DNA of 64,000 nucleotides from Anaerolineae bacterium (GTDB lineage: Bacteria; Chloroflexota; Anaerolineae; UBA1429). The notes beneath the pieces were generated by a model that was given only the letters and a program-made list of their open reading frames with translations, was not told the origin of the DNA and made no database searches. The DNA is taken from the NCBI GenBank assembly GCA_963675785.1, contig OY776562.1, forward strand, positions 2,528,001-2,592,000. Reading direction: 5' to 3'. Positions 21,750 through 41,766 of the stretch are shown here, piece by piece. A program made the translations under genes and the position numbers. Each line of letters starts with the position of its first letter. Position 1 is the first letter of the stretch.

Positions 21750-23084
21750 TCATACTGTCTCAGCACCTGTATAGCAATCCAGGCCCAATAAAGCGGCGCA
21801 ATAACCGAACGCCCTAGCCCAATCTCCAGGCACAATCACCTGATGGTTGCCCAGTAAATGTTCCACGAAATCGCGCCGTGATGCAAGCCTTACGCGCAAC
21901 TGCGTGCGGCAAGTAGGCTCACTGGCGCCATCCAGCGCCCGCCCAGGGAAAACGCTCAAGGCCGATGAATCGCGACCAAAGCGCACCACCGTCACCTGCT
22001 GCCCCATCCACAGGCCCACCTGTGGGCTCACACCCAGGCCGCTTTCATGATGACTACGCAAACAAAGACACCCGCCGCCATCAGCAGGAGCCACCGGCGC
22101 CGTACAGTGGGCAAAGAGAATAGTATCGTCTCGTCCAATCACCGGATTGGCCATCCATGCCGACTGGCCAGTGAGGGCCTTAGCCAAGGCCAAGGTAACG
22201 GCTGCATCCACGTCCCCCTCACAGGCACCCATGCGATGCGTATAAGCATTGAGTGAGGCCAGCGCCAGACATGCCGTTGAGCTGATATCGCCGATCAGCG
22301 AGAAACAGGCCACCGCCGCGCCGTCAGCATCGTAAAAATCCAGCATTTGCTCAAGGGCCAACTCGATGCAACAGGCCTGCACCACATCCTTTTCATCGGG
22401 CTCAACCACACGTTCAGCGCGTTCAATCCAGTCCTGGGCCCTCAGCAAAGCTTTTTGTGCCTCAACGCGTGTCGCATAATCCTCTAGCACTCGCAATGGC
22501 ACTGTGGTTACGCTCACACCCACCCGTTCGGACAGGCGCCCCAGGTCGCGTTCTGAGCTCTGTACCCAGTTTTCGGGTCCCCCTAGCAACAGCAGGCGCA
22601 ATCTGCGTAGCCGTGCCACCGCTTGCACCGCCAGAGACAACTGCACGAAATCGTTGGCCTGTTCGGCCCAAATGGCCAACTTTTTGCCGCGTTTGAACAG
22701 GCTCCAAACCTCGACTGCTGCTGGCGCGGCGTTGCGAGCCAACGCCAACTGAGAGGCCGAGAGAGAAAGAGGTCCAGGCATATAGGCAGGCAACAGAGCC
22801 ACCGCTTCAAAGCCGCTAGCCGCCTCGATCATCCAGGCCTGCACACCGCCGCTCAGTGGCACCAACAGTGCCGCACCGCCGCCCAAACCCTGCAAATCAT
22901 CTGCCGAGTAAATGAGCGTGGTGGTTACGTCCAGGCCCGCCAACGCTTCTTCAAGCACTTTTTGGACGTGGCCGTAGATGACGGCCAACTCGTCCTTGTC
23001 GGGCCAGTAACGCGGGCTGGCAAAAATCAACACCTTAGCTTGTGTCGTATGCTCCAACGCTCTCATCTCAGGTCCCTGCCACAC
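21750..23084 (-). CDS. Divergent L-fucose/L-arabinose isomerase-like protein
   Basis: 'ACEGDV','FAHCT','LRSHHES','CRTQL','GNHQ' C-terminal FucI/AraA-type motifs. Confidence 0.7.
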   Translation of the reverse strand: MWQGPEMRALEHTTQAKVLIFASPRYWPDKDELAVIYGHVQKVLEEALAGLDVTTTLIYSADDLQGLGGGAALLVPLSGGVQAWMIEAASGFEAVALLPAYMPGPLSLSASQLALARNAAPAAVEVWSLFKRGKKLAIWAEQANDFVQLSLAVQAVARLRRLRLLLLGGPENWVQSSERDLGRLSERVGVSVTTVPLRVLEDYATRVEAQKALLRAQDWIERAERVVEPDEKDVVQACCIELALEQMLDFYDADGAAVACFSLIGDISSTACLALASLNAYTHRMGACEGDVDAAVTLALAKALTGQSAWMANPVIGRDDTILFAHCTAPVAPADGGGCLCLRSHHESGLGVSPQVGLWMGQQVTVVRFGRDSSALSVFPGRALDGASEPTCRTQLRVRLASRRDFVEHLLGNHQVIVPGDWARAFGYCAALLGLDCYTGAETV

Positions 23085-23088
23085 GGCC

Positions 23089-24093
23089 TCATGGCACCAC
23101 TACCGTTTTGATATGGCCGCCCGGCCCGGATTTCAATAACTCTGGGAGTTCTTCCAAGCTAATATGGTTAGTCATCAGCGGCTCGACCTGAATACGCCCC
23201 TCAGCGAGCAAAGCCAGGGCCCGCGCATGGGTAAAGGGATTGATACGCGCGCCGCGAATCGTCAACTCCTTGCGAAACACTTCGTTGGGCTCGATTTCGA
23301 TGGTATGGCCAGGAGGTGTTACCCCAAACCAGACAATGGTCGCCCCAGGAGCCGCCCAAGCTACGGCCTGGCTGGTGGTCACGCGTGAACCCACCGCTTC
23401 CAGCACCACATCGGCACCACCCTGCAGCGTCCCGCCAACCGCCAAAGGATTCTCGTTGAGCGGATCGATCACCACATCAGCGCCAAGCTCAAGGGCCATT
23501 TGCCGCCGCTCAGCCATGGGATCGCTAACCACCACTGGCGCTGCCCCGGCAAAACGCGCCAACTGGGCCAACATCTGGCCAATGGCGCCGCCACCGATCA
23601 CTGCCACCCGATCGCCCGGCACAATGCCCGCCTGCTGAATACCCCGAACGCAACAAGCCAACGGCTCGGTCATGGCGCCAGCAAAAGTGCTCACGCCCTC
23701 TGGCAGCACATAGCACTGCTTGCGCGGCGCCACGCAATACTCGGCAAAGCCGCCATCCACGTCCACACCTAGGGCACGCAAGTTCTCGCACATGTTGATG
23801 CGACCCCGTTGGCAGGATCGGCAAATGCCGCAAGGCATGTTGGGGTCCACGGCAACGCGGTCACCCGGCACAATGTCGGTCACACCCACGCCCACCTCAA
23901 CGACTATGCCAGCATATTCGTGACCAGGCACCACCGGCGGCACGGTGTCGAATTCACCGTGAAAAATATGGTGGTCGGTGCCGCAAACACCGCAGGCCTC
24001 GATCTTGATCAGCACCTCACCAGCCGATGGCTTGGGCGTCGGACGCTCTTCGCAGCGGATATCGTGCAGCCCATAGAATACGCAGGCTTTCAT
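23089..24093 (-). CDS. Zn-dependent medium-chain (sorbitol/threonine-type) dehydrogenase
   Basis: 'CGVCGTD','GHE', CxxCxxC...C structural Zn site, 'GGGAIG'. Confidence 0.9.
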   Translation of the reverse strand: MKACVFYGLHDIRCEERPTPKPSAGEVLIKIEACGVCGTDHHIFHGEFDTVPPVVPGHEYAGIVVEVGVGVTDIVPGDRVAVDPNMPCGICRSCQRGRINMCENLRALGVDVDGGFAEYCVAPRKQCYVLPEGVSTFAGAMTEPLACCVRGIQQAGIVPGDRVAVIGGGAIGQMLAQLARFAGAAPVVVSDPMAERRQMALELGADVVIDPLNENPLAVGGTLQGGADVVLEAVGSRVTTSQAVAWAAPGATIVWFGVTPPGHTIEIEPNEVFRKELTIRGARINPFTHARALALLAEGRIQVEPLMTNHISLEELPELLKSGPGGHIKTVVVP

Positions 24094-24172
24094 TTTTTAC
24101 CTCTCCATTCATTCTCGCAACGTGCCGCCACTATAGCACCCCTTTTACCAGTCGACCAGCCCGCCAAGCAAC

Positions 24173-24201
24173 TTGAGCAGACCGCGAATTGGTGCTAGAA
24201 T
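24173..24201 (+). promoter_or_regulatory. sigma70-type promoter of the ECF/CoA operon
   Basis: TTGAGC-17 nt-TAGAAT with TG extended -10. Confidence 0.7.
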
Positions 24202-24250
24202 AAGTATGTTGGTGACTCGTCGAGCATCAAACGTTGCAATTGCCTGAACA

Positions 24251-24350
24251 ATATTTCGCTTGGATCGTTATACGACCGAGACGATATGAGACAGATGGGG
24301 CCTTGTGCCCAAACGCAGCCTCGTGTCCTCGGTCGACACGGGGTTTTTCT
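24251..24350 (+). ncRNA. pan-motif-like cis-regulatory leader RNA with terminator/antiterminator
   Basis: Hairpin 24256-24284 with bulged A24264 and A24281; terminator stem 24317-24345 with T-tract; CGACCGAG (24273-80) complementary to CTCGGTCG (24328-35). Confidence 0.7.
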
Positions 24351-25190
24351 GTGAGTGACTTTATTCGTATCGAAAATCTGCATTATACCTATGGTGCCGA
24401 TACCGACCATGCGGTCGTTGCTCTACGCGGCATCGACCTATCCATCGCCCAGGGCGAATATATCGCCATCATGGGACATAACGGCTCGGGAAAATCCACA
24501 CTGGCCCGCTGCCTGAATGGCCTGCTGACGCCCACCCAGGGCACAGTTTACGTAGATGGGTTGAATACAGCCGATGAACAAGCCCTATTCGATATTCGCC
24601 GCCGGGTGAGCATGGTGATGCAACACCCAGATAACCAGTTCGTCTCCACTGTGGTAGAGCACGAAGTAGCTTTTGGCCCCGAAAACCTGGGCCTGCCGCG
24701 CGTCGAACTCGTTGAGCGCGTCGACCAGGCTCTGGAACAAACCGGCCTGATCAATCTGCGCCACCGCGACCCGCGTACCCTTTCGGCCGGCCAAAAGGCC
24801 CGGTTGGCTATTGCTGATATGCTGGCCATGCGTCCTGAATACCTCGTCCTCGATGAATCGACCATCTTGTTGGATCCGCTCTCGCGTGAATCCATTCACG
24901 AATTGCTGGCTCAGCTCAACGCCCGCTCTATGGGCATCATCCACATCACTCACCAGGTCGAGGAAGCTGCCGCCGCCAAGCGCATGATCGTGCTGCAACA
25001 GGGCCAAGTGCTGGTGGACGATGCGCCCCTGTCAGCCTTTGCCCAAGCCAGTGAACTCGGGTTGGGTATCGGACAACCTGCCCCCATGGCCCTTGCCGAG
25101 AGATTGCGACAGCGCGGCTTGGCCATCGAGCTGGTGCTGACCACGGCCAACCTAATAACAGCGCTGCAACAAGCGGAGGCCTTGCTATGA
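24351..25190 (+). CDS. ECF transporter ATPase EcfA1
   Basis: 'GHNGSGKST','QHPDNQF','VAFGPENLG','LSAGQK','LVLDE'; GTG start inferred. Confidence 0.9.
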   Translation: MSDFIRIENLHYTYGADTDHAVVALRGIDLSIAQGEYIAIMGHNGSGKSTLARCLNGLLTPTQGTVYVDGLNTADEQALFDIRRRVSMVMQHPDNQFVSTVVEHEVAFGPENLGLPRVELVERVDQALEQTGLINLRHRDPRTLSAGQKARLAIADMLAMRPEYLVLDESTILLDPLSRESIHELLAQLNARSMGIIHITHQVEEAAAAKRMIVLQQGQVLVDDAPLSAFAQASELGLGIGQPAPMALAERLRQRGLAIELVLTTANLITALQQAEALL

Positions 25191-26035
25191 GCCAATCCGC
25201 CATTCAAGTGAGCAATCTGCAGCACATCTACATGCCCGGCACACCAGAGGCCTTTCAAGCACTATACGATGCCTCACTGACGGTGGCCCAGGGCAGCATT
25301 ACCGCCCTAGCCGGCGAAAGCGGCGCGGGCAAATCCACGCTGGCTCTCTATTTATGCGGACTTTTGCGTCCCACCAAGGTCGGACAGGTGCGCATTTTCG
25401 ACCGCGATATGGCCCAAAGCAGCCCGGGGCGTGATGTGGGTCTGGTGTTCCAATATCCCCAGCAACAGCTATTCGAACGTTATGTAGGCGATGATATTGC
25501 CTACGGCCCACGCAAGATGGGTCTCGCTGATACAACCCTCACCGAACGCGTGGGCTGGGCCATGGAGATGGTAGGTCTCGACTTTGAGGCCTTTGTCGAT
25601 CGTGAAACCTTTTCTTTAAGCGGTGGCGAGATGCGGCGTGCAGCGCTGGCCGGCGTACTGGCCATGCAGCCCCACATTCTGGTGCTGGATGAAGCCACTA
25701 CCGGTCTGGATCCCGCTGGGCAGTCGCTTATTCACCGGGTAATGCGCGAGTTGCGCGACAACCTGGGCACCACCGTTTTGCTCATCAGCAATGACATGGA
25801 CGAGATCGCCGAGTTGGCCGACGCCGTGGTGCTCTTGCATCAGGGGCGCACCATCGCCGAGGGTGCACCGCGCGAGGTGCTGGCCGAGGAAACGCGCCTC
25901 AATGCCTGCTCGCTGGTACGACCCACGCCCATGCGCATTCTGGCCGAGGCCGGACGTGCGGGATTTACCGTGAGCCAATCCGCGCTATCGCTCGATGAAG
26001 CCGAGGAAGAGTTATGGCAAGCTTTGCATCGCTAA
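25187..26035 (+). CDS. ECF transporter ATPase EcfA2
   Basis: 'IYMPGTP','GESGAGKST','FQYPQQQLF','LSGGEMRR','LVLDE'; ATGA overlap. Confidence 0.9.
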   Translation: MSQSAIQVSNLQHIYMPGTPEAFQALYDASLTVAQGSITALAGESGAGKSTLALYLCGLLRPTKVGQVRIFDRDMAQSSPGRDVGLVFQYPQQQLFERYVGDDIAYGPRKMGLADTTLTERVGWAMEMVGLDFEAFVDRETFSLSGGEMRRAALAGVLAMQPHILVLDEATTGLDPAGQSLIHRVMRELRDNLGTTVLLISNDMDEIAELADAVVLLHQGRTIAEGAPREVLAEETRLNACSLVRPTPMRILAEAGRAGFTVSQSALSLDEAEEELWQALHR

Positions 26036-26859
26036 GAAACATAAGCATCGGCCAGTACCACCCCGGCGATACAGTCTTTCACTTGCTGGACGCCCGTGTC
26101 AAGCTATCTGCCTTTATCCTGGCTCTGGTGGTTATTGTCATCGCCTCATCCTACAGCGCTAATATCTTGCTACTGGTGCTCTTCTTGGCGGCCATGTATG
26201 CCGCCCGGCTCTCACCCCGTGAGACCCTTGCCAGCCTGGGGCCGGCACTGCCGCTCATCGCTATGTTTGCCCTATTGCAGCTCTTGTTCTACGGCCAAGG
26301 ACCGGCGGAATCGCGCATCGTCCTCGATTGGGGGCCAGTCATCATCTCCACCGCCGGTATTCAGCTGGTCGTTGTCTCGGTGATGAGGTTGTTCAGTTTA
26401 CTATTCGCCACAGCACTACTCACCAACACCACCACCGTATCGGCGTTGACCCAGGGCATGGAACAACTGCTCTCGCCCCTGTCGCGAATCGGCTTGCCCG
26501 GCCACGAACTAGCCATGGTAGGAGCCATCGCCCTGCGCTTTCTGCCCATCTTGGGAGAACAGATGGCCGTCATCTCGCAGGCGCAAATGCTGCGCGGCGT
26601 GGACGAGGAAAGCGGCGGCCGCTGGCGCATTGTGCAAAATGCACGCCGTCTGGCTACGCTCATCGTGCCCCTCTTTGTCGACGCCTATCGACGTTCGGGA
26701 GAGATGACCGAAGCCATGTTGACTCGCTGTTACCGGGGCGGACGCGGACGCACGCATTTGTATGAACCCAAGCTCTCCTCAAGGGACCTGACTTCGTCTC
26801 TAGTATGTCTGGCGTTTTCCGGGATCGTCATTTGGATCGCTTATTCACCGCTACCCTAA
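26014..26859 (+). CDS. ecfT: ECF transporter transmembrane T component
   Basis: 'GQYHPGDT..H.LDARVKL','IALRFLP','AQMLRG','AMLTRCY.GG.GRT'. Confidence 0.9.
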   Translation: MASFASLRNISIGQYHPGDTVFHLLDARVKLSAFILALVVIVIASSYSANILLLVLFLAAMYAARLSPRETLASLGPALPLIAMFALLQLLFYGQGPAESRIVLDWGPVIISTAGIQLVVVSVMRLFSLLFATALLTNTTTVSALTQGMEQLLSPLSRIGLPGHELAMVGAIALRFLPILGEQMAVISQAQMLRGVDEESGGRWRIVQNARRLATLIVPLFVDAYRRSGEMTEAMLTRCYRGGRGRTHLYEPKLSSRDLTSSLVCLAFSGIVIWIAYSPLP

Positions 26860-26873
26860 AAAAGGGGGAATCC

Positions 26874-27605
26874 ATGGTACCCAATCAAAGAGGCGTTCAA
26901 CGCGTGGTAACCGCTGGCCTGTTGCTGGCCATTACCCTACTGCTGACCTTTACTCGCATCGGCATGATCCCAGTGCCTACGCCCGCTGGCAATGCTACTA
27001 TCAGCCATATTCCTGCCATCATCGGCGGCATTTTGGAGGGCCCTCTGGTTGGCCTCATCGTGGGCATGGGCTTTGGCTTTGCCAGTTATGCCACAGCCAC
27101 CACGCCCATGTTCAAAGACCCGCTGGTAGCCGTACTGCCGCGTTTGTTCATCGGTGTGGCTTCTTACTATATGATTGCCCTACTCTACAAGGCCAACCGC
27201 AAAACACTGCAGACCCTAGCCGGCGTATTGTGGGCCCTGCTGCTGGTTTTTTCCTGGCAGATCGGTGGACAGACGCTCTGGTTGGGCATTCTAGTTGCCC
27301 TAGTCTCTACAGCTGCAGCCATTGCCGCGTTTATCTGGCTGCAAAAAGAGGATACGCGCATCGTTGCCCTAGCCATTGCCTCGGTCGTCGGCTCTTTTAC
27401 CAATACCGTGCTCGTTTTGGGCATGGCGGTATTCCGCGCCTATCTCACTGCTGAAGTAGCCTTGGCTGTGGGCCTTGTCCACGGCGTGCCCGAAGCCATT
27501 ATCAGCGCCATTATCACCGTCGCTGTAGTCGCCACGTTGAGGCAGATCAATCGCAAAAAGGCGGGCTCCAAGCTCGTACGCGAAAACAGCAGCACGAATC
27601 AATAA
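26874..27605 (+). CDS. ECF S component, PanT-like (pantothenate/pantetheine by context)
   Basis: 'IPVP...ATISHIPAIIGGILEGP','DPLVAVLPRLFIG','GSFTNTVLVLG','PEAI'. Confidence 0.8.
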   Translation: MVPNQRGVQRVVTAGLLLAITLLLTFTRIGMIPVPTPAGNATISHIPAIIGGILEGPLVGLIVGMGFGFASYATATTPMFKDPLVAVLPRLFIGVASYYMIALLYKANRKTLQTLAGVLWALLLVFSWQIGGQTLWLGILVALVSTAAAIAAFIWLQKEDTRIVALAIASVVGSFTNTVLVLGMAVFRAYLTAEVALAVGLVHGVPEAIISAIITVAVVATLRQINRKKAGSKLVRENSSTNQ

Positions 27606-27621
27606 CAGCAGGAGGGGAAAC

Positions 27622-28395
27622 ATGCTTCTCTGTGTAGATGTTGGTAACACCAATACGGTCCTGGGGCTTTACGATGGTGAAGAACTGGTCACCCATTGGC
27701 GCATCAGCACTGACGCCCATCGCATGCCCGATGAGTACGGCATTCAATTGTTGACCCTGGCCGCCAATGCACACATCGAGCTACCCAGCATTGATGGGGC
27801 TATTGTGGCCAGCGTGGTGCCGCCTGTCACTGAATACCTGACTGAGATGATCCACGAATACGTGGGCATCGAGCCGCTGGTAGTGGGAGGCGGTATCCGC
27901 ACCGGCGTGCCTATTCGCTACAGCAGCCCGCAAGAAGTGGGTGCCGACCGCATCGTCAATGCTGTAGCCGCTCACAAACTCTACGGTGGACCGGCCTGCA
28001 TCGTCGATTTCGGTACTGCCACTACCTTTGACGCCCTTTCTGCCAAGGGAGAGTACCTGGGCGGCGCCATCTCGCCGGGCATTCGCCTGGCCGCCGAAGC
28101 CCTTTACGAGCGTACCGCCAAGTTGCCCCGCATCGACCTAAAAGCCCCCGATAAAGCCGTGGGGGCCAACACCATCGACGCCATGCGCTCAGGCATCCTC
28201 TATGGCTATATCGGCCTGGTGGAAGGTATGGTCAAGCGTTTCCGCGCTGAACTGGGCGCCAACATGAAAGTCATTGCCACTGGCGGTTTGGCCGAGGTAG
28301 TGGCTCGTCACACTGATTGCATCGAAGTAGTAGATACCTGGCTAACCCTCAAGGGCCTGCGGTTCATTTATGAGCTGAACGAGGAGGAGCGATGA
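27622..28395 (+). CDS. coaX: Type III pantothenate kinase
   Basis: 'DVGNTN','VGADR','VDFGTATT','GGAISPG','ATGG'. Confidence 0.96.
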   Translation: MLLCVDVGNTNTVLGLYDGEELVTHWRISTDAHRMPDEYGIQLLTLAANAHIELPSIDGAIVASVVPPVTEYLTEMIHEYVGIEPLVVGGGIRTGVPIRYSSPQEVGADRIVNAVAAHKLYGGPACIVDFGTATTFDALSAKGEYLGGAISPGIRLAAEALYERTAKLPRIDLKAPDKAVGANTIDAMRSGILYGYIGLVEGMVKRFRAELGANMKVIATGGLAEVVARHTDCIEVVDTWLTLKGLRFIYELNEEER

Positions 28396-29600
28396 TCCTA
28401 AAAGGAAAGAACGTGGTCCTCGGCGTTACCGGGGGTATTGCCGCCTACAAAGCCGTAGATTTGTGCAGCAAGCTGGTGCAGGCTGGTGCTAACGTGGACG
28501 TCATCATGACGCCCGCCGCTACCAAGTTTGTCACGCCGCTGCCCTTTCAAACCATCTCGCAGAACCCAGTCTCTACCGACATGTTCCAGTTGCTCAAAGA
28601 AACCGATATGGCCCACATCTCCCTCTCGAAAAAAGCGGATGTGATCGTCATTGCCCCGGCAACCGCCAACACCATTGCCAAGCTGGCCCATGGTATGGCC
28701 GATAACCTGCTGACTACCACCGTGCTGGCCTCACCCGCGCCGTTGGTCATTGCCCCGGCCATGGATGCCGACATGTGGGCTAACCCACGCACTCAGGCCA
28801 ACGTGCGCACGCTGGTCGATTCCGGCGTTGCTTTTGTAGGGCCTGGCGAGGGCCGACTGGCTTCGGGGCGCATGGGACGGGGACGGTTGGTCTCCACAGA
28901 AGATATCCTGGCTGCCATGCGCATCAAGCTGGGCGAAAAGGGGCCTCTGGCTGGCCAACAGGTGGTGGTTACCGCCGGTGGCACCCAAGAGCCGCTGGAC
29001 CCCGTGCGTCATCTAGGCAATCGCAGCTCGGGCAAGATGGGTTACGCCCTGGCTATCGCCGCCCGCGATGCTGGCGCCCACGTTACCCTGATCTCGGCGC
29101 CCTGCTGTCTGGAAGCGCCTTACGGCGTCGAGTTTGTGCCTGTACGCACCGCCGCCGAGATGCACCAGGCTGTGCTGGCTCATGCCAATGGCTCAGACAT
29201 CCTGTTCATGGCCGCTGCCGTGGCTGACTACCATCCGGCTGTTGTGTCCGCTGAAAAGATGAAAAAGACGCCGGGCAACCTCATGCTGGAACTGGAGCGC
29301 ACGCCTGACATTCTGGCCAGCGTGGCAGAGATGGGCGTCGCGCGACCGCGCGTGGTGGTGGGTTTTGCCGCCGAAACCGAGAATGTGCTGGCCAACGCCC
29401 AGAGCAAATTGGCGCGCAAAAAACTGGACATGATCGTGGCTAACGATGTATCCGTAGCGGATAGCGGCTTTGGCGTGGACACCAACCGCGTCACCCTACT
29501 GACGCCTGATGGTCAGCAGGAAGAGTTGCCGCTCCTCTCCAAAGAAAAAGTCGCCGAACGCATCATTGCCGCTACCGCCTCGATGGGAGATGGGGCATGA
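28392..29600 (+). CDS. coaBC: Phosphopantothenoylcysteine decarboxylase/synthetase
   Basis: 'GVTGGIAAYKA','APATANTIAK','TAGGTQE.LDPVR..GNRSSGKMG','GFAAET'. Confidence 0.97.
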   Translation: MILKGKNVVLGVTGGIAAYKAVDLCSKLVQAGANVDVIMTPAATKFVTPLPFQTISQNPVSTDMFQLLKETDMAHISLSKKADVIVIAPATANTIAKLAHGMADNLLTTTVLASPAPLVIAPAMDADMWANPRTQANVRTLVDSGVAFVGPGEGRLASGRMGRGRLVSTEDILAAMRIKLGEKGPLAGQQVVVTAGGTQEPLDPVRHLGNRSSGKMGYALAIAARDAGAHVTLISAPCCLEAPYGVEFVPVRTAAEMHQAVLAHANGSDILFMAAAVADYHPAVVSAEKMKKTPGNLMLELERTPDILASVAEMGVARPRVVVGFAAETENVLANAQSKLARKKLDMIVANDVSVADSGFGVDTNRVTLLTPDGQQEELPLLSKEKVAERIIAATASMGDGA

Positions 29601-30559
29601 AACCAAGATATGCGGGCTCGATCACCGATGTGACCGGCATTACCGTGGGGCAAGCGCAAAATCTCGAGGCAGGCACCGGCTGCACAGTAGTGCTGGCTGA
29701 TGGTGGCGCTATTGCTGGTGGTTCAGTGCGCGGCCTCTCCCCTGGCACCCGCGAAACCGACCTTCTGCGCCCTGGCACGTTGGTACAAAAGGCCAATGCC
29801 ATCCTGCTCACCGGAGGCAGCGCCTTTGGCCTGGCTGCTGCTGATGGCGTGATGCGCTATTTGGAAGAGCATGATCTGGGCCACGATACCGGCGTCGCAA
29901 AGGTGCCCATTGTGCCCGGTGCGGTGCTGTTCGATCTGGCCGTGGGCCAGGCCTCCATTCGCCCCGACGCTGCTATGGGCTATCTGGCTTGCCAGAACGC
30001 TTCAGTCGCCATTCCCGCCATGGGTAATGTAGGGGCTGGAACGGGTGCTAGTGTGGGCAAATTGCTGGGCATGAACCGCGCTTACAAGGCGGGCATTGGC
30101 ACAGCCAGCATTAGCGCCGGAGGATTGGTGGTGGGCGCCATTGTTGCTACCAATGCTTTTGGCGATGTCATCGACCCCGAAAACGGCACCATCCTGGCGG
30201 GCACGCGTAAAGCCGTGGGTTCAGGCTTTGCCGATACCGCTCAGGCCATGCGCTCGATGGTCGTGCGCAATGTGTTAGCACGCACCAACACGGTTATTGG
30301 CGTCATTGCCACCAATGCCGATCTCGATGTAGCCCAAACCAACGAAGTATCCGCCGCAGCTCACGACGGTCTGGCGAGGGTCATCCGCCCCTCGCATACG
30401 CTCTACGATGGCGATACCCTATTTGCCCTTTCCACATGCGAGATCAAGACCAACCTGGCGTTGGTGGCCGATATGGCCGCCGAGGCAACCGCCAAGGCCA
30501 TCATCAACGGCATACTGGCCGCCGAGGCCGCTTATGGATTGCCAGCCGTCAACAAGTAA
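29597..30559 (+). CDS. P1/S58 (DmpA/ThnT-like) peptidase/amidohydrolase
   Basis: 'ITDV.GI.VG','PGTRETDLL','LTGGSAFGL','GNVGAGTG','NTVIGVIATNA','HTLYDGDT'; ATGA overlap with coaBC. Confidence 0.88.
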   Translation: MKPRYAGSITDVTGITVGQAQNLEAGTGCTVVLADGGAIAGGSVRGLSPGTRETDLLRPGTLVQKANAILLTGGSAFGLAAADGVMRYLEEHDLGHDTGVAKVPIVPGAVLFDLAVGQASIRPDAAMGYLACQNASVAIPAMGNVGAGTGASVGKLLGMNRAYKAGIGTASISAGGLVVGAIVATNAFGDVIDPENGTILAGTRKAVGSGFADTAQAMRSMVVRNVLARTNTVIGVIATNADLDVAQTNEVSAAAHDGLARVIRPSHTLYDGDTLFALSTCEIKTNLALVADMAAEATAKAIINGILAAEAAYGLPAVNK

Positions 30560-30581
30560 CCACAGGCGCGTTTTGCACAAG

Positions 30582-30614
30582 AAAAAAGGCGGTCGGATAA
30601 TCCGACCGCCTTTT
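30582..30614. terminator. Bidirectional intrinsic terminator
   Basis: AAAAAA-GGCGGTCGGA-TAA-TCCGACCGCC-TTTT. Confidence 0.85.
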
Positions 30615-30625
30615 AGCATACGCTT

Positions 30626-31969
30626 CTAGCTGTGGCTCTGGCGACCCTCATCATAGATAGGGCCATAAACCTCGCGATCGAACATGGCACAGCCGGCCCG
30701 GCCGTGATCGCGCATGATCTGCGTGCAGCGGCTGCAGGCCACGCACACGCCGCGAGTCTTCATGGCGCCGTCCAGTAGAATATCGCGAGCAAAATCAGGA
30801 TAGGCAAAGGCCATGCGACCCGCCCCCACGATATCGGCCCAACCAGCCTCGACCACGCCAGCAGCCACGTTGGCCATATACTGCCTCAGCCAGGAATAGC
30901 CCGAGCCCATAATCAACATATCGGGGTTAGCCAGCTTGATATCACGCGCCACATGGATGATGCGCTCCACACCAAAGAGCGGATGCTCTTCTGGTGTATA
31001 GGCCCCCACGGTATTGGTATCGAACGGGCGGTTGATATGCGGCTTGAAATAGGGGTTCCCTATCGTCACATTGACCAGTGAGACGCCCAATCCCTTGAGC
31101 ATGCCGACCAGCTCGATAGGCTCACTCAGATCGGGCACCATGGGGTCGTCCTTACTGACGCCCCAACCCCAGGGATAAGGATGCCCATCGTAACAGTTCA
31201 TACGAATGGTGATGTCGATCTCGGGCACCTCGTTACGCACGCGTGCCACGGTCTCACGCAACATGCGGGTGCGGTTCTCGAACGATCCGCCGTACTTGCC
31301 CTCGCGGGTATGGCAGGCCAACAGCTCAGAGAGCAGATAGCGATGGCAGCTCTTGATGTCGACGCTATCGAAACCCGCCTTGTAAGCCAGCTTGGCCGCC
31401 GCCACATAGGCGTCCTGCAAACGATCGAGGTAATCGTCCGTCACCAGAGGATAATCGGCAGGGATACCCACAGCATCGTCGAGCAGCCCATCATGATGGG
31501 CAATGATAGGAGCCGGCTTATCCACCGGGCGAGAATAACGCCCCGAATGGGTCAGCTGGATGGCGCAATAGGGGTCATAGGCAGCACCATTGCGCTCCTG
31601 GCCGTCCGCTACAGACTCTTCGCGAAGACGCTTGAAAGCGTCCAAGTTGTCCTCAACCAGCAATAATTGGCGAGGATTGGCGCGCCCCTCGGGAACCACG
31701 GCCGTGGCCTCGAACCAGAGCAGCCCGGCGCCGCCACGCGCAAAACGGTGATAGCGTCGAATGGTCAGTTCATCGGGCTTGCCCTCAGCTGTGCCGTCGC
31801 AGCCTTCCATGGGGTGAACACCCAGTGAATTCGGCGATACTTTGCGGCCAACCTGCACGGGGCGAGCGAGAACGCTCAAATCCTCGCTGACGGGCAAGTC
31901 TAGCCCGAGTTCATCAATGCGAGCCTTGAGATCATCCAAAGTCTTGAAACGGAACCTCTCATGGGGCAT
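30626..31969 (-). CDS. Old-yellow-enzyme-type NADH:flavin oxidoreductase
   Basis: 'PMEGCD','FARGGAGL','QLTHSGR','DIKSCHRYL','YGGSFENR', C-terminal CxxCxxC. Confidence 0.88.
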   Translation of the reverse strand: MPHERFRFKTLDDLKARIDELGLDLPVSEDLSVLARPVQVGRKVSPNSLGVHPMEGCDGTAEGKPDELTIRRYHRFARGGAGLLWFEATAVVPEGRANPRQLLLVEDNLDAFKRLREESVADGQERNGAAYDPYCAIQLTHSGRYSRPVDKPAPIIAHHDGLLDDAVGIPADYPLVTDDYLDRLQDAYVAAAKLAYKAGFDSVDIKSCHRYLLSELLACHTREGKYGGSFENRTRMLRETVARVRNEVPEIDITIRMNCYDGHPYPWGWGVSKDDPMVPDLSEPIELVGMLKGLGVSLVNVTIGNPYFKPHINRPFDTNTVGAYTPEEHPLFGVERIIHVARDIKLANPDMLIMGSGYSWLRQYMANVAAGVVEAGWADIVGAGRMAFAYPDFARDILLDGAMKTRGVCVACSRCTQIMRDHGRAGCAMFDREVYGPIYDEGRQSHS

Positions 31970-32055
31970 GAGGCTATCCCCTTTCTATCCAATCACGAGT
32001 ACCATCTGGGAAAAGATAGCACGCTCGGTTGTCAGGGTCAACCTGCCATCGCTTC

Positions 32056-32084
32056 TTGACATCACCAAGCGCCAATGCCATGCT
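32056..32084 (+). promoter_or_regulatory. sigma70-type promoter
   Basis: TTGACA-17 nt-CATGCT with TG extension, upstream of 32109. Confidence 0.55.
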
Positions 32085-32108
32085 AATGGAAATCGATTGA
32101 GGAGAAAC

Positions 32109-33122
32109 ATGATAGAACCACTCTACCCCATGTTGGGTATGATCATCCCCACCTATTTCTCTGATCAGACGCCCGAGGGGATCATCCGTGAACTGTTTGC
32201 CATGACCCTGTGCCACCTCGACCATTACCTGCCGCTCGCACAGGTAGAAGTCGTTATCGATGGCGATCAGCGCGCGTTGCCCATCATTCGCGAACTGGGC
32301 GCCAGTCTCGATCAACCGTTCGACCTTGTCGTACTCGAGGAGAATCAGGGGAAATTAGGAGCCATTCGCGTGGGTCTAGAGCGCCTGTATGAGCGCTGGC
32401 CCAATACCGAGGCAGCCGTCATCCGCGATTGCGACGGCGACCATGGATCTGAGGCTTTGCCTTCGTTCATACGCCTATCCCAAGAGCTAAAAAGCGCTTC
32501 GAATGGCCTGTACATGATCGCCGGGGCCCGCACTTCGCGGCACCACCCCATGGGCTGGATGCGCGGCGAGTTGGAGACCATCCTCGATGCTGTGACCATA
32601 GACGCCCTGGCCTTTAGCCTGGCCAAACAGAATCGCCTGCTCGACCTGACCTATTGCGCTACGCAACGCGCCGTACCCGATATCAGCAGCGGTTACAAGC
32701 TCTATTCGCGCGAGCTTGTACAGCACATCTTTTTCACCCAGACGAACACAGCCTGTCTCTCGCCATACGACTATGATCACCTGGCCCCCGAGACGGCCCC
32801 CTTCGTAGAGGCCATGCTGCAGGGCGCCCTCTATGGCGAGATCGAACGTAGCACCTTTAACGGGCAGCCCACCACCTCTTTCGGCGAGTTCGAACACGCC
32901 CATCTCTACGGGCGTCTGCTGGCCTGGGTATGGACCCGACTCGACGTACCGCTCGACGTAGGTCTGCAGATGTATGACAATCACGCAGCCCCCAGCCTAC
33001 TGCTCACCACCGAAAACGGCATTCAGGCCGTCGAAGCCGTTCGCCAACGGGCGGCAGACATTATTCAAGTTGGCGAGCCCGAAATGCGCTTTCGCAAACG
33101 CAGACGCAGGAGCTTTGTCTAG
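32109..33122 (+). CDS. Hypothetical GT-A-fold (family 2-like) glycosyltransferase
   Basis: 'IIPTY','VIDG','ENQGKLGAIRVG','RDCDGDH','DISSGYKLY'; GAGGAG RBS. Confidence 0.6.
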   Translation: MIEPLYPMLGMIIPTYFSDQTPEGIIRELFAMTLCHLDHYLPLAQVEVVIDGDQRALPIIRELGASLDQPFDLVVLEENQGKLGAIRVGLERLYERWPNTEAAVIRDCDGDHGSEALPSFIRLSQELKSASNGLYMIAGARTSRHHPMGWMRGELETILDAVTIDALAFSLAKQNRLLDLTYCATQRAVPDISSGYKLYSRELVQHIFFTQTNTACLSPYDYDHLAPETAPFVEAMLQGALYGEIERSTFNGQPTTSFGEFEHAHLYGRLLAWVWTRLDVPLDVGLQMYDNHAAPSLLLTTENGIQAVEAVRQRAADIIQVGEPEMRFRKRRRRSFV

Positions 33123-33183
33123 AACTTTTTCCCCGTTCTCGATCAAAAGATTACAATAATGAGCAGCTCAGGAGTGCAAATAT

Positions 33184-34110
33184 ATGTCAGATATCGTGGT
33201 TCTCGGCAGCATCAACATGGATTTAGTCGTTCGCTCACCGCAGATGCCCCGCCCCGGCGAAACGCTTAGAGGCAGTGGCTTTACCACCGTACCCGGCGGT
33301 AAAGGCGCCAATCAGGCCGCAGCGGCCGCCCATCTGGGGGCCAGCGTGCAAATGATCGGCTGCGTGGGGCAAGATGCCTTTGGTCAAACCCTGCTCACTA
33401 ACCTCACCAATCAGGGTGTCGATGTCTCCAGCGTGCGCACCACAAATGACGAGGCTAGCGGCATTGCCCTGATCATCGTGGATGACGACGGCGAGAATTC
33501 GATTGTGGTAGCGCCGGGGGCCAATTATGCCTTGCAGGCTGCGGATGTGGCCCGCAACCGCCAGATATTCAAGCAGGCACGTATGCTGGTTATGCAGTTA
33601 GAGATTCCCCTGGGGGTCGCTGCGGAGGCCATCTATACCGCCAAAGAGATTGGTCTGCCCGTGGTGCTCAACGCCGCCCCGGCAACCAAGGTGCCCGCCG
33701 AGTTGCTGCGCGGCATCTGCGTCATCGTCAACGAATCCGAAGCCGAGACCATCACCGGCATTCCCGTTCATTCCGATCAAGACGCCTATCGCGTTTGCAT
33801 GCACCTCATGGACCTGGGCGCCGAGACGGCTATCGTCACTCTGGGGCCCAATGGGGCCGTTTACAGCAACAAAAACACTAGCGGATATGTCCCGGGCGTC
33901 AAGGTCAAGGCCATCGATACCACCGGCGCTGGCGACACCTTTGTGGGCGCCTTTTCCGTGGCACTGCTAGAGGGGCGATCGTTGGGCGAGGCTGTGGCCT
34001 ATGCCAACTGCGCCGGCGCCCTGGCCACCACCGTGCTTGGCGCACAAACCTCCATTCCCCAGCGCAATGATGTCGATTCCCTCTACGAGAAGACGAAAAG
34101 CCTAGCATGA
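33184..34110 (+). CDS. rbsK: Ribokinase (PfkB family)
   Basis: 'GSINMDL','GGKGANQA','NESE','DTTGAGDTF'. Confidence 0.9.
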   Translation: MSDIVVLGSINMDLVVRSPQMPRPGETLRGSGFTTVPGGKGANQAAAAAHLGASVQMIGCVGQDAFGQTLLTNLTNQGVDVSSVRTTNDEASGIALIIVDDDGENSIVVAPGANYALQAADVARNRQIFKQARMLVMQLEIPLGVAAEAIYTAKEIGLPVVLNAAPATKVPAELLRGICVIVNESEAETITGIPVHSDQDAYRVCMHLMDLGAETAIVTLGPNGAVYSNKNTSGYVPGVKVKAIDTTGAGDTFVGAFSVALLEGRSLGEAVAYANCAGALATTVLGAQTSIPQRNDVDSLYEKTKSLA

Positions 34111-35105
34111 GCGCCAGAATCGGACTCATCGCCAACCCCGCCGCCGGAAAAGACATCCGTCGCCTGATTGCCCACGGCACCAGCATGGATAATCAAGCCA
34201 AGATCGCCATGCTGCGGCGCATTCTAGTGGGCTTGCAGGCCATGGGACCGATCAACGTGTTGGCTATGCCAGATGCCAGCCATCTCATTCAGCGTGCTCT
34301 GGAGGGCATTGGTGGCGTCAAGCCCCAGGTCGATTACGTGGACATGGCCGTCACCAACCTGCCTACCGATTCGACCAAGGCGGCCCAGGCCATGCGTGAG
34401 GCCGATTGTGCCTGCATTCTGGTGCTAGGCGGCGACGGCACGGCACGCATCGTCTCTCAGGCAGACGTGCCTCTGCTACCCATTTCCACCGGCACCAACA
34501 ACGTGCTGCCGGTAACCACCGAGGGCACCCTGGCTGGTATGGCCGCCGGAGCTATGGCACTGGGGCTCATCGACGCCAACCGGGTGTGTTATCGCCACAA
34601 GTGGTTGGAAATTCGCGACAACGACACTTATGTCGACCGCGCCTTGGTGGATGTGGCCGTCATTCGCGGCCAGTTCATCGGCGCCAAGGCCGTGTGGGAT
34701 ACCTCGCGCCTGGTACAGGTGATTGCTACCCGTGCCAATCCCATGTCCACCGGTATTTCGGCCATCGCTGGCATGTGCTGTCCGGTCGCCGTGAGCGAGC
34801 CGCACGGCGTGGCCCTGACTATTGGGCCGGATAGCAGCAAATCGGCCAGTCATCACATTCGCGCGGTCATTGCCCCGGGTCTGGTCGAGAGTGTGGGCAT
34901 TCAGGCTCACCGCAGCATCGCCCCCGATGAGTCCGTGGCCATTGTCGACGAGCGGCCCCTGGTCATCGCCCTTGATGGTGAACGTGAGATCGTGCTGAAC
35001 GCCCCCTCGCGGGCCACCGTCACCCTGCACGATGACGGGCCTTGTATTATCGATCTGGAAGCGGCCGTTCACCAGATGGTCAGCCGACACTTGTTCACAG
35101 TCTAG
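34107..35105 (+). CDS. ATP-NAD kinase-like / AcoX-family protein
   Basis: 'IANPAAGKDIRRL','LGGDGT','STGTNNV','ALDGERE'. Confidence 0.8.
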   Translation: MSARIGLIANPAAGKDIRRLIAHGTSMDNQAKIAMLRRILVGLQAMGPINVLAMPDASHLIQRALEGIGGVKPQVDYVDMAVTNLPTDSTKAAQAMREADCACILVLGGDGTARIVSQADVPLLPISTGTNNVLPVTTEGTLAGMAAGAMALGLIDANRVCYRHKWLEIRDNDTYVDRALVDVAVIRGQFIGAKAVWDTSRLVQVIATRANPMSTGISAIAGMCCPVAVSEPHGVALTIGPDSSKSASHHIRAVIAPGLVESVGIQAHRSIAPDESVAIVDERPLVIALDGEREIVLNAPSRATVTLHDDGPCIIDLEAAVHQMVSRHLFTV

Positions 35106-35145
35106 AGCGCCCCGACGCGCCCTACCCAGCCAATACGGAGGAATA

Positions 35146-36555
35146 ATGACAATTAAAACAGATATCGCGATCATCGGTTCAGGCCCCGGAGGCTATGTGG
35201 CCGCATTGAGGGCCGCTCAGCTCGGTGCGAGTTGCACCCTCATCGAAAAAGACAGATTGGGTGGCGTTTGCTTGAACTGGGGCTGCATCCCCACCAAGGC
35301 ACTGTTGTATTCTGCCGAGGTCATCGAGAGCGCCCACACCGCCAGCGATTTCGGTATCAACATCGGCGATGTGGTGGTGGATTGGGATGGCGTCCAGGCC
35401 CACAAAAACAGTGTGGTCAAAAAACTCACCGGTGGCGTCGAGGTGTTGCTGAAAAAGGCCGGCGTCAACATTCTTTACGGCGCGGCCAGCTTTATCGAGC
35501 CCACTATTTTACAGGTCGAGGGCGAATCCGGCACAGAAACCGTCGAGGCGCGTGATGTGATCATCGCTACCGGCTCACGCAACGCCAGCATCCCCATCCC
35601 AGGGCTGGATGGCCCTGGCGTGGTCGATAGCACCGGCGCTCTGGCCCTGGAAGCCCTACCCAACTCCATCTGCATTATTGGTGCGGGCGCCATCGGCTTG
35701 GAATTCGCCAGCCTGTTCAATGATTTCGGCGTCAAGGTGACCGTGGTCGAGATGATGCCCCGCATTGCCCCACTGATGGATGAGGCCATCAGCCGCGGCT
35801 TGGACCGTGCACTCTCTGGCAAGGGCATCGACCTGCACACCAACACCCGCGTCTCTCGCGTCGAGCACGATGGCAAGCAGTGCATCATCACCATGACCAA
35901 GGACGGCGAGGAGCAAAAGGTCTCGACGGACATCGTGCTCTCAGCTATCGGCCGAGCGGCCAACATTGAGAACATTGGCCTGGAAAATCTGGGCATCAAA
36001 GCCGACCGCAAGGGCATTCAGGTGGATAACCGTATGCGCACGGCCGTGCCCCATGTCTATGCCATCGGTGACGTGGCCAAAGACGGCCCCATGCTGGCCC
36101 ACGTCGCCTCGCACCAGGGCATCGTGGCCGTCGAAGACGCCATGGGCCTGACGGCGCACATGGCATATAACGCCGTGCCTTCCTGCATCTATACTTCTCC
36201 CGAGGTGGCCTCGGTGGGTCTTACGGAGGAAGAGGCTCGCAATGCCGGTTACGAGGTCGTCACCGGCACCTTCCGACTGGGCGCCAACGGCAAAGCGCTG
36301 GCCATGGGCGTATCCGATGGATTCGTCAAGGTGGTCTCTGATGCCAAGAACAAGGCCATTCTGGGTGTGCACATCGTCGGCCCCCACGCCAGCGATGTCA
36401 TCCTCGAAGGCACACTCTCGCTGGACATGGAAGTCACCCTCGGCGAGATGCGCCATGTCATCCATCCCCATCCGGCTCTGGGCGAAGCGCTGGCTGAAGC
36501 CATGTTGGATGCCGAAGGCATTTCGCTGCATTCCGTCTCGCGCAAGCGCAAATAA
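35146..36555 (+). CDS. lpdA: Dihydrolipoyl dehydrogenase
   Basis: 'GSGPGGYVAA','GGVCLNWGCIPTK','GAGAIGLE','HPHPALGE'. Confidence 0.95.
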   Translation: MTIKTDIAIIGSGPGGYVAALRAAQLGASCTLIEKDRLGGVCLNWGCIPTKALLYSAEVIESAHTASDFGINIGDVVVDWDGVQAHKNSVVKKLTGGVEVLLKKAGVNILYGAASFIEPTILQVEGESGTETVEARDVIIATGSRNASIPIPGLDGPGVVDSTGALALEALPNSICIIGAGAIGLEFASLFNDFGVKVTVVEMMPRIAPLMDEAISRGLDRALSGKGIDLHTNTRVSRVEHDGKQCIITMTKDGEEQKVSTDIVLSAIGRAANIENIGLENLGIKADRKGIQVDNRMRTAVPHVYAIGDVAKDGPMLAHVASHQGIVAVEDAMGLTAHMAYNAVPSCIYTSPEVASVGLTEEEARNAGYEVVTGTFRLGANGKALAMGVSDGFVKVVSDAKNKAILGVHIVGPHASDVILEGTLSLDMEVTLGEMRHVIHPHPALGEALAEAMLDAEGISLHSVSRKRK

Positions 36556-36557
36556 TG

Positions 36558-36587
36558 AAAAGGGGGAGTCTTAAGACTCCCCCTTTT
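36558..36587. terminator. Bidirectional intrinsic terminator (perfect 30-bp palindrome)
   Basis: AAAAGGGGGAGTCTTAAGACTCCCCCTTTT between convergent genes. Confidence 0.88.
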
Positions 36588-36588
36588 A

Positions 36589-37332: not shown

Positions 37333-37381
37333 ACCGAAAAACTCCTTTTGCCGCCAGCCTCAGAGGGGTTAAACTATCAGC

Positions 37382-39444: not shown

Positions 39445-39477
39445 GGGTATCGTTTCTCCATCAGGTATAGTGAGATC

Positions 39478-39503
39478 ATTATACCATCACAGAACAAATG
39501 TTC
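39478..39503 (-). promoter_or_regulatory. Extended -10 promoter with adjacent LexA (SOS) box
   Basis: TGGTATAAT on minus strand (39478-39486); GAAC-AAAT-GTTC at 39492-39503. Confidence 0.7.
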
Positions 39504-39552
39504 ACATAAAGACAAGGCGGCTGCATGACGCAACCGCCTTGATTGTACTAGT

Positions 39553-41745: not shown

Positions 41746-41766
41746 CAGAGCACCTCCAAGGCAAAA

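Follow-up and report, generated by a model that had tools for sequence, protein, structure and literature searches.

Why does a gene for a peptidase-family enzyme close a run of genes for vitamin B5 (pantothenate) and coenzyme A (CoA) metabolism? The question is raised by a 64,000-nucleotide stretch of DNA, here called the window, from Anaerolineae bacterium (phylum Chloroflexota; assembly GCA_963675785.1, contig OY776562.1, positions 2,528,001 to 2,592,000 of the forward strand). Open reading frame (ORF) calls place seven plus-strand genes in series at positions 24234-30559 of the window: ecfA1-ecfA2-ecfT-ECF S (PanT-like)-coaX-coaBC-S58/P1 peptidase, where ECF denotes an energy-coupling factor transporter and S its substrate-binding component. 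The first-pass annotation, made from the sequence alone, saw a ThnT-like hydrolase in the last gene. It proposed that imported or recycled pantetheine is cleaved to pantothenate plus cysteamine, so that CoaX and CoaBC can use it. Judging from its sequence and setting, we think that the S58 protein is, on balance, probably a cytoplasmic self-processing N-terminal nucleophile (Ntn) amidase that hydrolyses pantetheine, or a very close pantothenoyl amide, with the pantothenate passing to CoaX. An enzyme type already known would thereby gain a new pathway role in primary metabolism, and the genomic association that points to this is strong.

The S58 protein and its relation to ThnT

The S58 protein matched PF03576 with 151.3 bits (cut-off 23.9) over residues 8-314. 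In a sequence search of the PDB, the closest solved structure was Nyl50 (9CXR; E 5.9e-67, residues 9-304), and the second was 9YYS, named 'L-aminopeptidase/D-esterase' (E 1.7e-52). ThnT was matched with E 1.3e-43, at 43% identity over 300 aligned positions, and classical NylC was far more distant (E about 1e-25 to 1e-27). The motif N-T-V-I-G-V-I-A-T-N-A, described earlier as being of the autoproteolysis type, was found at residues 231-241 (nucleotides 30287-30319). It is preceded by R-T, and its N-T pair aligns with those of ThnT and Nyl50. In an alignment of 157 family members Thr232 was kept in 156 and the N-T pair in 142; K155 was kept in 154, and N186, D271 and D273 in all 157. We take K155, N186, D271, D273 and T232 to be the catalytic set described for NylC. 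The precursor is predicted to cleave itself at Asn231/Thr232. The first description as a ThnT-like hydrolase therefore stands; the protein is a Thr-nucleophile S58 member of the ThnT/NylC type. On inspection its N-terminus has no hydrophobic signal-like stretch. Hence, it is probably a cytoplasmic protein.

ThnT of Streptantibioticus (Streptomyces) cattleyicolor (PDB 3TM1, 3S3U, 4IHD, 4IHE) belongs to the same S58/DmpA-OAT fold family, and shares with the window protein the Asn/Thr autoprocessing site and the conserved K, N and D-G-D residues. It has 405 residues in the reading used here, compared with 320 in the window protein; its N-terminus is extended, and there are insertions ahead of the cleavage site and close to the C-terminus. 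Its gene lies on megaplasmid pSCAT, presumably in the thienamycin cluster. In Freeman's work of 2008, ThnH reportedly dephosphorylates before ThnT acts. If our reading is right, ThnT and the window protein catalyse the same reaction. Their settings differ. ThnT supplies cysteamine in secondary metabolism, whereas the window protein belongs to a B5/CoA operon of primary metabolism and would be of use there for the pantothenate that it releases. ThnT is named a pantetheine hydrolase in passages of PMC13725253 and PMC13602198. In the part of the latter drawn on here, a 2026 review, microbial pantetheine hydrolases are known from ThnT alone, in secondary metabolism.

Nyl50 (PDB 9CXR, 9DYS) and NylC (3AXG) have a Thr nucleophile, like the window protein, and the amides that they cleave join aliphatic chains. 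For such 'nylonases', nylon is not a natural substrate. In the passages of PMC11601465 that concern this point, the Nyl50 authors state that the native function of their enzyme panel was not determined and is not nylon degradation, and the panel is likewise without a link to nylon by-product catabolism. In the window, a Pfam scan of the 13 ORFs in 21750-35105 found no nylA- or nylB-like amidase family, no search specific to nylA or nylB having been made. These ORFs were ECF, CoA, dehydrogenase or kinase genes, or had no Pfam family. The amide between beta-alanine and an aliphatic amine that would be cut in pantetheine resembles nylon linkages, and this likeness would explain promiscuous nylon hydrolysis by Nyl50.

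DmpA and BapA, the beta-aminopeptidases that founded PF03576, have the Pfam family and the autoproteolytic Ntn architecture in common with the window protein. Both use a Ser nucleophile and require a free N-terminal amine. Conversely, the nucleophile in the window family is Thr, as counted above, and no DmpA or BapA chain was among the PDB matches to the window S58 protein at E ≤0.01. The vanins of animals are extracellular ectoenzymes with the fold of the nitrilase superfamily. That fold is unrelated to S58, and no signal peptide is apparent in the window protein. The overall reaction of the vanin (VNN1) pantetheinases, from pantetheine to pantothenate and cysteamine, would be the same (passages in PMC13602198 and PMC12570885).

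To place ThnT in the family, its gene was taken from the pSCAT record; chain residues 21-419 of PDB 3TM1 agree with the translation at every position. Relatives encoded near B5 genes (see below) match ThnT at 1e-52 to 1e-55 and Nyl50 at about 1e-73; across these comparisons classical NylC stays much further off (E about 1e-25 to 1e-29). One of them, a Chloroflexota protein whose gene adjoins an ECF S gene, shares with ThnT 48% identity over 356 aligned positions, or 57-58% when ungapped columns alone are counted. In a quick tree of 105 rows, ThnT lay in a 12-row clade (support 96 by SH-like approximate likelihood ratio test, SH-aLRT), the other 11 rows of which are all Chloroflexota proteins. 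Ten of these are encoded near B5 genes, namely an S component gene, a pan operon or coaX; the eleventh, at locus L124, is encoded beside ecfT and an M20 deacylase. In a careful mixture-model tree of 49 rows, ThnT and the clade of the window protein fell within one group of 37 rows (support 91/87), the exact position of ThnT there not being fixed. The B5-linked proteins of Clostridioides difficile, Anaerotruncus, Lachnospira eligens, Brevibacillus and Anaerosolibacter lie outside this group. In both trees, for which no root was inferred, ThnT falls within the range covered by B5-linked proteins, as would be expected had an enzyme of primary metabolism with the same activity been recruited to become ThnT.

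The S58 family is large, with 6978 representative clusters at E ≤1e-3. Among 15 long representatives scanned, there were no fusions of S58 to CoA enzymes. The fusion partners were an SSF transporter, GNAT (2), HPPK, NAD(P)HX dehydratase and LysM. Three of these proteins, HPPK(FolK)+S58, S58+NAD(P)HX dehydratase and S58+LysM (P0013, P0081 and P0141), may be true fusions or gene-calling artefacts. The FolK-S58 fusion matches a Clostridia neighbourhood, folK/birA-S58-(S)-coaX (L106, L117, L206). A S58-GNAT fusion, in one open frame with GNAT C-terminal, occurs at L164:6986-8539 (P0004), and another is P0130; the S58 part is 61% identical to the window protein. The fusion is clear in only one of the 26 loci collected around it (set 3, below). 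About ten Anaerolineae loci have a divergent GNAT gene near S58. In thienamycin biosynthesis the acetyltransferase ThnF works beside ThnT. The S58-GNAT pairing could be a parallel to ThnT and ThnF, with acetylation of released cysteamine.

Linkage of S58 genes to pantothenate and CoA genes

Four sets of loci were annotated with family hidden Markov models (HMMs) built from the loci themselves. Set 1 comprised the 80 closest relatives, all Chloroflexota, and set 2 comprised 77 unique loci around a distant representative, with ten phylum labels. Together these are 157 unique loci, three of which have <1.5 kb on both sides and are uninformative. Set 3 was 26 loci around the S58-GNAT fusion, where some contigs repeat set 1, and set 4 was ten new loci. 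A B5/CoA gene lay in the fetched flank in 52 of the 157 loci and was directly adjacent to S58 in 47 (29 and 26 of 80 in set 1; 23 and 21 of 77 in set 2). By phylum, 43 of 107 Chloroflexota loci and 9 of 13 Bacillota loci were linked. For a random gene we would roughly expect adjacency of 1-2%, a figure derived from three B5/CoA gene sites in a 3.2 Mb genome with a flank of +/-8 kb, and not a computed control. The relatives are not independent and so no p-value is given.

The adjacent partner in the 47 loci was coaBC in 28, a PanT-like S gene in 9, the DUF2520-panD-panB-panC group in 7, coaX in 2 and panE in 1. The commonest arrangement was coaBC-S58 (19 loci), followed by S58-DUF2520-panD-panB-panC and variants (7), ecfT-S-coaX-coaBC-S58 (5) and coaX-coaBC-S58 (4). 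Three loci had S-S58, and another three, including a variant, had panB-panE-panC-panD-coaX-coaBC-S58. Two loci each had ecfT-S-S58-M20 (Brevibacillus) and ecfT-M20-S58-S; S58-S-coaX, S58-coaX, panE-S58 and a reversed S58-coaBC (L146) were found once each. Within set 1, coaBC was upstream of S58 in 28 of 80 loci, in 25 of them within 200 bp; the full ecfT-S-coaX-coaBC-S58 string was present in five loci and S58 lay in a pan operon in one. There are thus about ten arrangements of seven B5 gene families, in both gene orders and two phyla, and the linked or unlinked state changed at least 18 times on a FastTree phylogeny of the 157 proteins. Hence, the linkage is not readily put down to inherited synteny or chance. 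The original proposal was to be given up if S58 had no conserved linkage to CoA genes. What we find is that coaBC, coaX, PanT-like S and pan genes recur beside S58 in Chloroflexota and Bacillota.

A B5 link was present in 6 of the 26 loci of set 3, comprising five more cases of S58-DUF2520-panD(-panB-panC) and one of coaX-S58. In set 4, three of ten loci were linked: two were S58-S-coaX (Anaerosolibacter and Thermotalea) and one, from Eremiobacterota, had a convergent panB; the other seven had no link. In 15 Chloroflexota genome regions, picked solely for lying on long contigs, pan genes were adjacent to S58 in 4. The compact operon S58-DUF2520 reductase-panD-panB-panC was seen in Dehalococcoidia-type Chloroflexota (L047, L109, L112, L130, L132, L136, L158, L180-L185 and L201). 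Its DUF2520 protein is presumably a PanG-type ketopantoate reductase; DUF2520 is given as a domain of the Francisella enzyme of this type in a passage of PMC4572677. At L171:4341-6923, the coaX-bearing frame upstream of S58 runs to about 860 codons, and is either a fusion (e.g. BirA-CoaX, cf. NF009862) or a read-through of two genes in a stop-to-stop ORF call.

In a plasmid collection, 6 of 24 matching records were examined. RefSeq annotation gives birA-P1 peptidase-ECF S-type III pantothenate kinase (PanK)-dusB in the C. difficile record, PanK-ECF S-P1 peptidase in Anaerotruncus colihominis, and ECF S-P1 peptidase in L. eligens. The RefSeq names in these three records are independent support for the linkage. 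Our family HMMs found S58-S-coaX in the Acetoanaerobium noterae record. The S58 gene of a Selenomonas plasmid had no B5 link, and the match on pSCAT was ThnT itself.

The source genome is a single contig of 3.22 Mb, rated 94.8% complete, in which the S58 gene is single-copy. Family searches of this complete genome, with controls positive in known genomes, gave no match for panB, panC, panD or the type I pantothenate kinase gene coaA. Type II PanK (PF03630) also had no match in the genome, although here the positive control gave no match anywhere. The coaD and coaE genes are encoded elsewhere in the genome. Since panB, panC, panD and coaA matches are missing, the organism looks like a pantothenate auxotroph with CoaX its only recognisable pantothenate kinase. 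Across 401 sampled Chloroflexota genomes, two of them flagged unpublished (G145, G227), S58 homologs (E ≤1e-20) were found in 228.

The kinase type matters for pantetheine use. CoaA phosphorylates pantetheine too, whereas CoaX-type kinases are selective for pantothenate, and pantethine does not rescue cells that have CoaX alone, according to passages of Warneke et al. (2024; PMC11487621) and of a 2025 review (PMC12570885). A B. subtilis double mutant lacking panC and coaA, for instance, cannot use pantethine (PMC11487621). The first-pass statement that type III kinases do not accept pantetheine agrees with these sources. The CoaA route of E. coli and B. subtilis serves the same aim as the route proposed here, from exogenous pantetheine or pantethine to CoA. 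It phosphorylates pantetheine directly and bypasses CoaBC (same passages), whereas the proposed route hydrolyses pantetheine and needs CoaX and CoaBC. In the text of the 2025 review cited here, pantetheine use is confined to bacteria with PanK-I, the uptake route is unknown, and uptake and use of pantetheine or pantethine by PanK-III bacteria are listed as open (PMC12570885). Our search of article texts found no published link between S58/P1 peptidases (COG3191), or a ThnT-type pantetheinase, and bacterial pantothenate or CoA salvage. The chemistry would be that of ThnT, and a hydrolysis-based pantetheine salvage feeding CoaX and CoaBC is not described in anything that we found.

Operon organisation and transport genes

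Table 1. Features of the operon, in positions of the window.
Feature	Position	Strand	Evidence
Promoter-like site 5' of ecfA1	24173..24201	+	TTGAGC-17-TAGAAT, 9/12 consensus match, TG before second hexamer; weak
ecfA1, ECF transporter ATPase	24234..25190	+	PF00005 E 7e-32; 4-nucleotide overlap with ecfA2
ecfA2, ECF transporter ATPase	25187..26035	+	PF00005 E 3e-26
ecfT, ECF transmembrane coupling component	26014..26859	+	PF02361 (CbiQ) E 5e-36
ECF substrate-binding S component, PanT-like, 243 amino acids	26874..27605	+	PF12822 79 bits, E 5e-22
coaX, type III pantothenate kinase	27622..28395	+	PF03309 265 bits, E 8e-79; NF009855 327.8 bits (cut-off 233)
coaBC, phosphopantothenoylcysteine synthetase/decarboxylase	28392..29600	+	TIGR00521 458.1 bits (cut-off 219.7)
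S58/P1-family Ntn amidase, 320 amino acids (P0001), candidate pantetheine hydrolase	29597..30559	+	PF03576 E 5.5e-44
Asn231-Thr232 codons, predicted autoproteolysis site; Thr232 the predicted N-terminal nucleophile	30287..30292	+	aligned with N-T of ThnT and Nyl50
GC-rich hairpin, probable bidirectional terminator	30584..30614	.	14 pairs, 8 G-C; 25 nucleotides past S58 stop

The features are listed in Table 1. Neighbouring genes of the string are spaced or overlap by ≤16 nucleotides. The sequence ATGA forms the coaX stop and coaBC start at 28392-28395, and the coaBC stop and S58 start at 29597-29600; both overlaps had been pointed out before. CoaX and CoaBC match equivalog-level NCBIfam profiles above cut-off. 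The hairpin after S58 was scored by the scan on the minus strand, and the plus strand has four T only after the stem. A flavin oxidoreductase gene converges on the S58 gene with the hairpin between them, so that the terminator is probably bidirectional. The remaining terminator-like matches in 23900-30800 are all inside coding sequence; the total there is 8, which is not above shuffled sequence (6.1 +/- 2.3). Promoter-like sites numbered 5, against 3.0 +/- 1.7 in shuffles, and the site upstream of ecfA1 is suggestive at most. Given this site and the short gaps and overlaps, the transcription unit most likely begins at ecfA1 (24234), upstream of 26874. Thus, in the unit first drawn from 26874 to 30559, the end and the gene order hold, and the start, which is that of the ECF S gene, has to be moved upstream.

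The operon lies inside a G+C-richer block: G+C is 0.57-0.61 in 22000-42000 of the window and 0.49-0.55 in most flanks (0.55-0.57 at the window's far end). Two ORFs, 21750-23084 on the minus strand and 31842-33122 on the plus strand (444 and 426 amino acids), had no Pfam family at E ≤0.001. The latter runs into the 5' end of the convergent oxidoreductase gene and is perhaps not a real gene.

The transport genes comprise an EcfA-EcfA'-EcfT module (PF00005 twice, PF02361) and an S component (PF12822) with modest similarity to 4rfs_S and 6zg3_C. The best solved relative of the S component is 4rfs_S, with E 6.6e-5 for the single sequence and 2.7e-9 for a 12-sequence profile; the profile matched 6zg3_C with E 9.5e-4. 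No further S-component structure, RibU included, came below E 1 for the window's S family. We take 4RFS and 6ZG3 to be ECF-PanT structures, the molecule names in the search being generic. The start that gives 243 residues is backed by homologs of 233-243 residues covering up to 100% of the query. Source names of the homologs are all generic, and the S component reaches no NCBIfam model. S components beside S58 in the Clostridia records are homologous to that of the window (E 1.6e-48 to 5.6e-7). The cargo would be pantothenate and perhaps pantetheine.

Other transporters accompany S58 elsewhere. A sodium:solute symporter (SSF) gene lies directly beside S58 at L092, L108, L113 and L155, with Gemmatimonadota and Acidobacteriota among the sources. 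With the PanF model the unfused SSF partner reached 123 bits (cut-off 328), and the generic SSS and PRK10484 models gave it much the same score. In P0051, of 785 residues, SSF is fused to S58, and the SSF half is not specifically PanF (29 bits). An M20 deacylase of the ArgE/DapE type (TIGR01910, 276 bits, above cut-off) recurs beside S58 together with an ECF module or SSF, at eight loci in four phyla (L084, L126, L087, L124, L160, L113, L108 and L115). In the Brevibacillus S58-M20 locus, an M3 oligopeptidase (PepF) comes next.

A proposed route from pantetheine to CoA

In the mechanism that we favour, the ECF system with its PanT-like S component would import pantothenate and perhaps pantetheine. 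The S58 precursor would cleave itself between Asn231 and Thr232. The new N-terminal Thr232 would then attack the carbonyl of the beta-alanyl-cysteamine amide of pantetheine, cysteamine would leave, and water would free pantothenate from the acyl-enzyme. CoaX, unable to use pantetheine, would phosphorylate the pantothenate; CoaBC would rebuild 4'-phosphopantetheine, and CoaD and CoaE would complete CoA. The CoaX and CoaBC steps are established functions of these families. Autoprocessing, substrate and cargo are predictions, and the cleavage step is modelled on ThnT. Free pantetheine as substrate and pantothenate as product are preferred because all linked contexts share pantothenate, whether through its import by a PanT-like S component or possibly a PanF-like SSF, its synthesis from panB, panC, panD and panE/PanG-type genes, or its consumption by coaX and coaBC.

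Several observations weigh against this reading. No B5 gene was near S58 in 105 of the 157 loci, and linkage was 0/37 in the phyla other than Chloroflexota and Bacillota (Acidobacteriota 0/16, Thermodesulfobacteriota 0/9, Pseudomonadota 0/4, other or unnamed 0/8). Outside that count, the convergent panB of the Eremiobacterota locus is one exception, and the SSF genes of uncertain specificity beside S58 lie in four loci from these other phyla. The S58 gene also stands at the head of complete pantothenate biosynthesis operons. An anticorrelation of S58 with type I PanK, expected if S58 compensates for CoaX, was not found; homologs are present in 30 of 35 CoaA-positive and 198 of 366 CoaA-negative Chloroflexota genomes. 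On simple logic CoaA-positive genomes can do without a pantetheinase, and three of them (L190-L192) carry S58 with no B5 gene beside it. More often than coaX or any other B5/CoA gene it is coaBC that adjoins S58, and this would suit a phosphorylated substrate as well. The recurrent M20 deacylase, and PepF in Brevibacillus, could point to a different imported amide. Hydrolysing pantetheine and then adding cysteine again is costlier than direct phosphorylation. The mixture-model tree did not keep the 12-row clade of ThnT. Finally, six alignment columns separate B5-linked from other proteins, and ThnT matches the linked type in three of the six, a weak signal.

Since S58 heads complete pan operons, pairs with M20 and co-occurs with type I PanK, a strict fix for CoaX is a less fitting description of its role than a third route by which pantothenate is supplied. 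The salvage idea of the first-pass annotation thus keeps its footing in the homology to ThnT, in the lack of panB, panC, panD and coaA matches and in the conserved linkage, and loses the notion that compensation for CoaX is universal.

Because coaBC lies immediately upstream of S58 in 28 of 47 adjacent cases, and is the sole B5 gene nearby in 19 loci, S58 might instead be a recycling or repair amidase. Its substrate would be 4'-phosphopantetheine (possibly damaged), (phospho)pantothenoyl-cysteine or a mis-ligated analogue, and it would return 4'-phosphopantothenate to CoaBC. The reversed S58-coaBC order at L146 and the joining of S58 in P0081 to NAD(P)HX dehydratase, a metabolite-repair enzyme, agree with this, and co-occurrence with CoaA is no problem for it. 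We nevertheless think it unlikely: free pantothenate is a better match for the Bacillota loci in which S and S58 are tightly paired and coaBC is lacking, and for the pan operons that S58 heads, and the known substrate of ThnT is unphosphorylated pantetheine. The modules of transporter (ECF S or SSF), S58 and M20 in eight loci of four phyla suggest another course, in which the cargo is an amide or peptide-like nutrient other than B5, degraded by S58 and M20, and the link to coaX and coaBC reflects shared regulation or inherited order. The M3 oligopeptidase of Brevibacillus, the scores of the SSF partner and the failure of the S component to reach an NCBIfam model are compatible with such a cargo. 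However, among solved structures the S family has significant matches to two entries alone, both of which we take to be PanT. In C. difficile, Acetoanaerobium, Anaerosolibacter and Thermotalea a member of this S family separates S58 from coaX, and S58 is linked to panB, panC, panD and panE also where there is no transporter. This makes a cargo unrelated to B5 distinctly improbable.

Two further explanations have still less in their favour. S58 may be a general housekeeping peptidase or amidase with no B5 role, its adjacency being inherited synteny plus chance. The many unlinked loci, with neighbours as varied as an AI-2E transporter, a response regulator and GNAT, and the spread of the family through 228 of 401 Chloroflexota genomes and thousands of clusters would suit this. 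The variety of arrangements, gene families and orders in two phyla, with its repeated changes of state, is hard to derive from one ancestral order, and the linkage is far above that estimated for a random gene; we therefore hold this explanation to be very unlikely. Least probable of all is an aminopeptidase of the DmpA/BapA kind that releases beta-alanine for pantothenate synthesis. Such an enzyme would fit the shared Pfam family and the linkage to panD-panB-panC operons, and DmpA-type enzymes handle beta-alanyl substrates according to a passage in PMC9570944. However, the source genome has no panC, panB or panD match, so that beta-alanine would be useless for CoA there, and S58-holding pan operons already encode PanD. 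The PDB search gave no DmpA or BapA chain at E ≤0.01, and the window protein shares its Thr nucleophile with ThnT and NylC, where DmpA has Ser.

A broader proposal may be drawn from these data, which we offer tentatively and lean slightly against as a whole. The entire Thr-nucleophile 'P1 peptidase / NylC-like' clade could be the missing bacterial pantetheinase, an enzyme of primary metabolism. With a PanT-like ECF S component importing pantetheine or pantothenate, it would define a hydrolysis-based salvage for bacteria that have CoaX only. ThnT would then be a recruit from this clade, 'nylonase' activity would be promiscuity in an enzyme made for the beta-alanyl-cysteamine amide, and fused or neighbouring GNAT proteins would dispose of cysteamine as ThnF does. 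The clade counts thousands of clusters, is single-copy in most Chloroflexota carriers, and occurs in Clostridia, including C. difficile and gut commensals.

If the pantetheinase reading of the window protein is right, it would fill a gap stated by reviews, in the passages cited here, on microbial pantetheine hydrolases (PMC13602198) and on pantetheine use with PanK-III (PMC12570885). It would also give a native function to an enzyme clade now mined for nylon hydrolases (part of PMC11601465). The presence of the module in gut Clostridia and C. difficile would bear on how gut bacteria use host- and diet-derived products of CoA breakdown, on where microbial cysteamine comes from, and on how bacteria inactivate pantothenamide antimetabolites.

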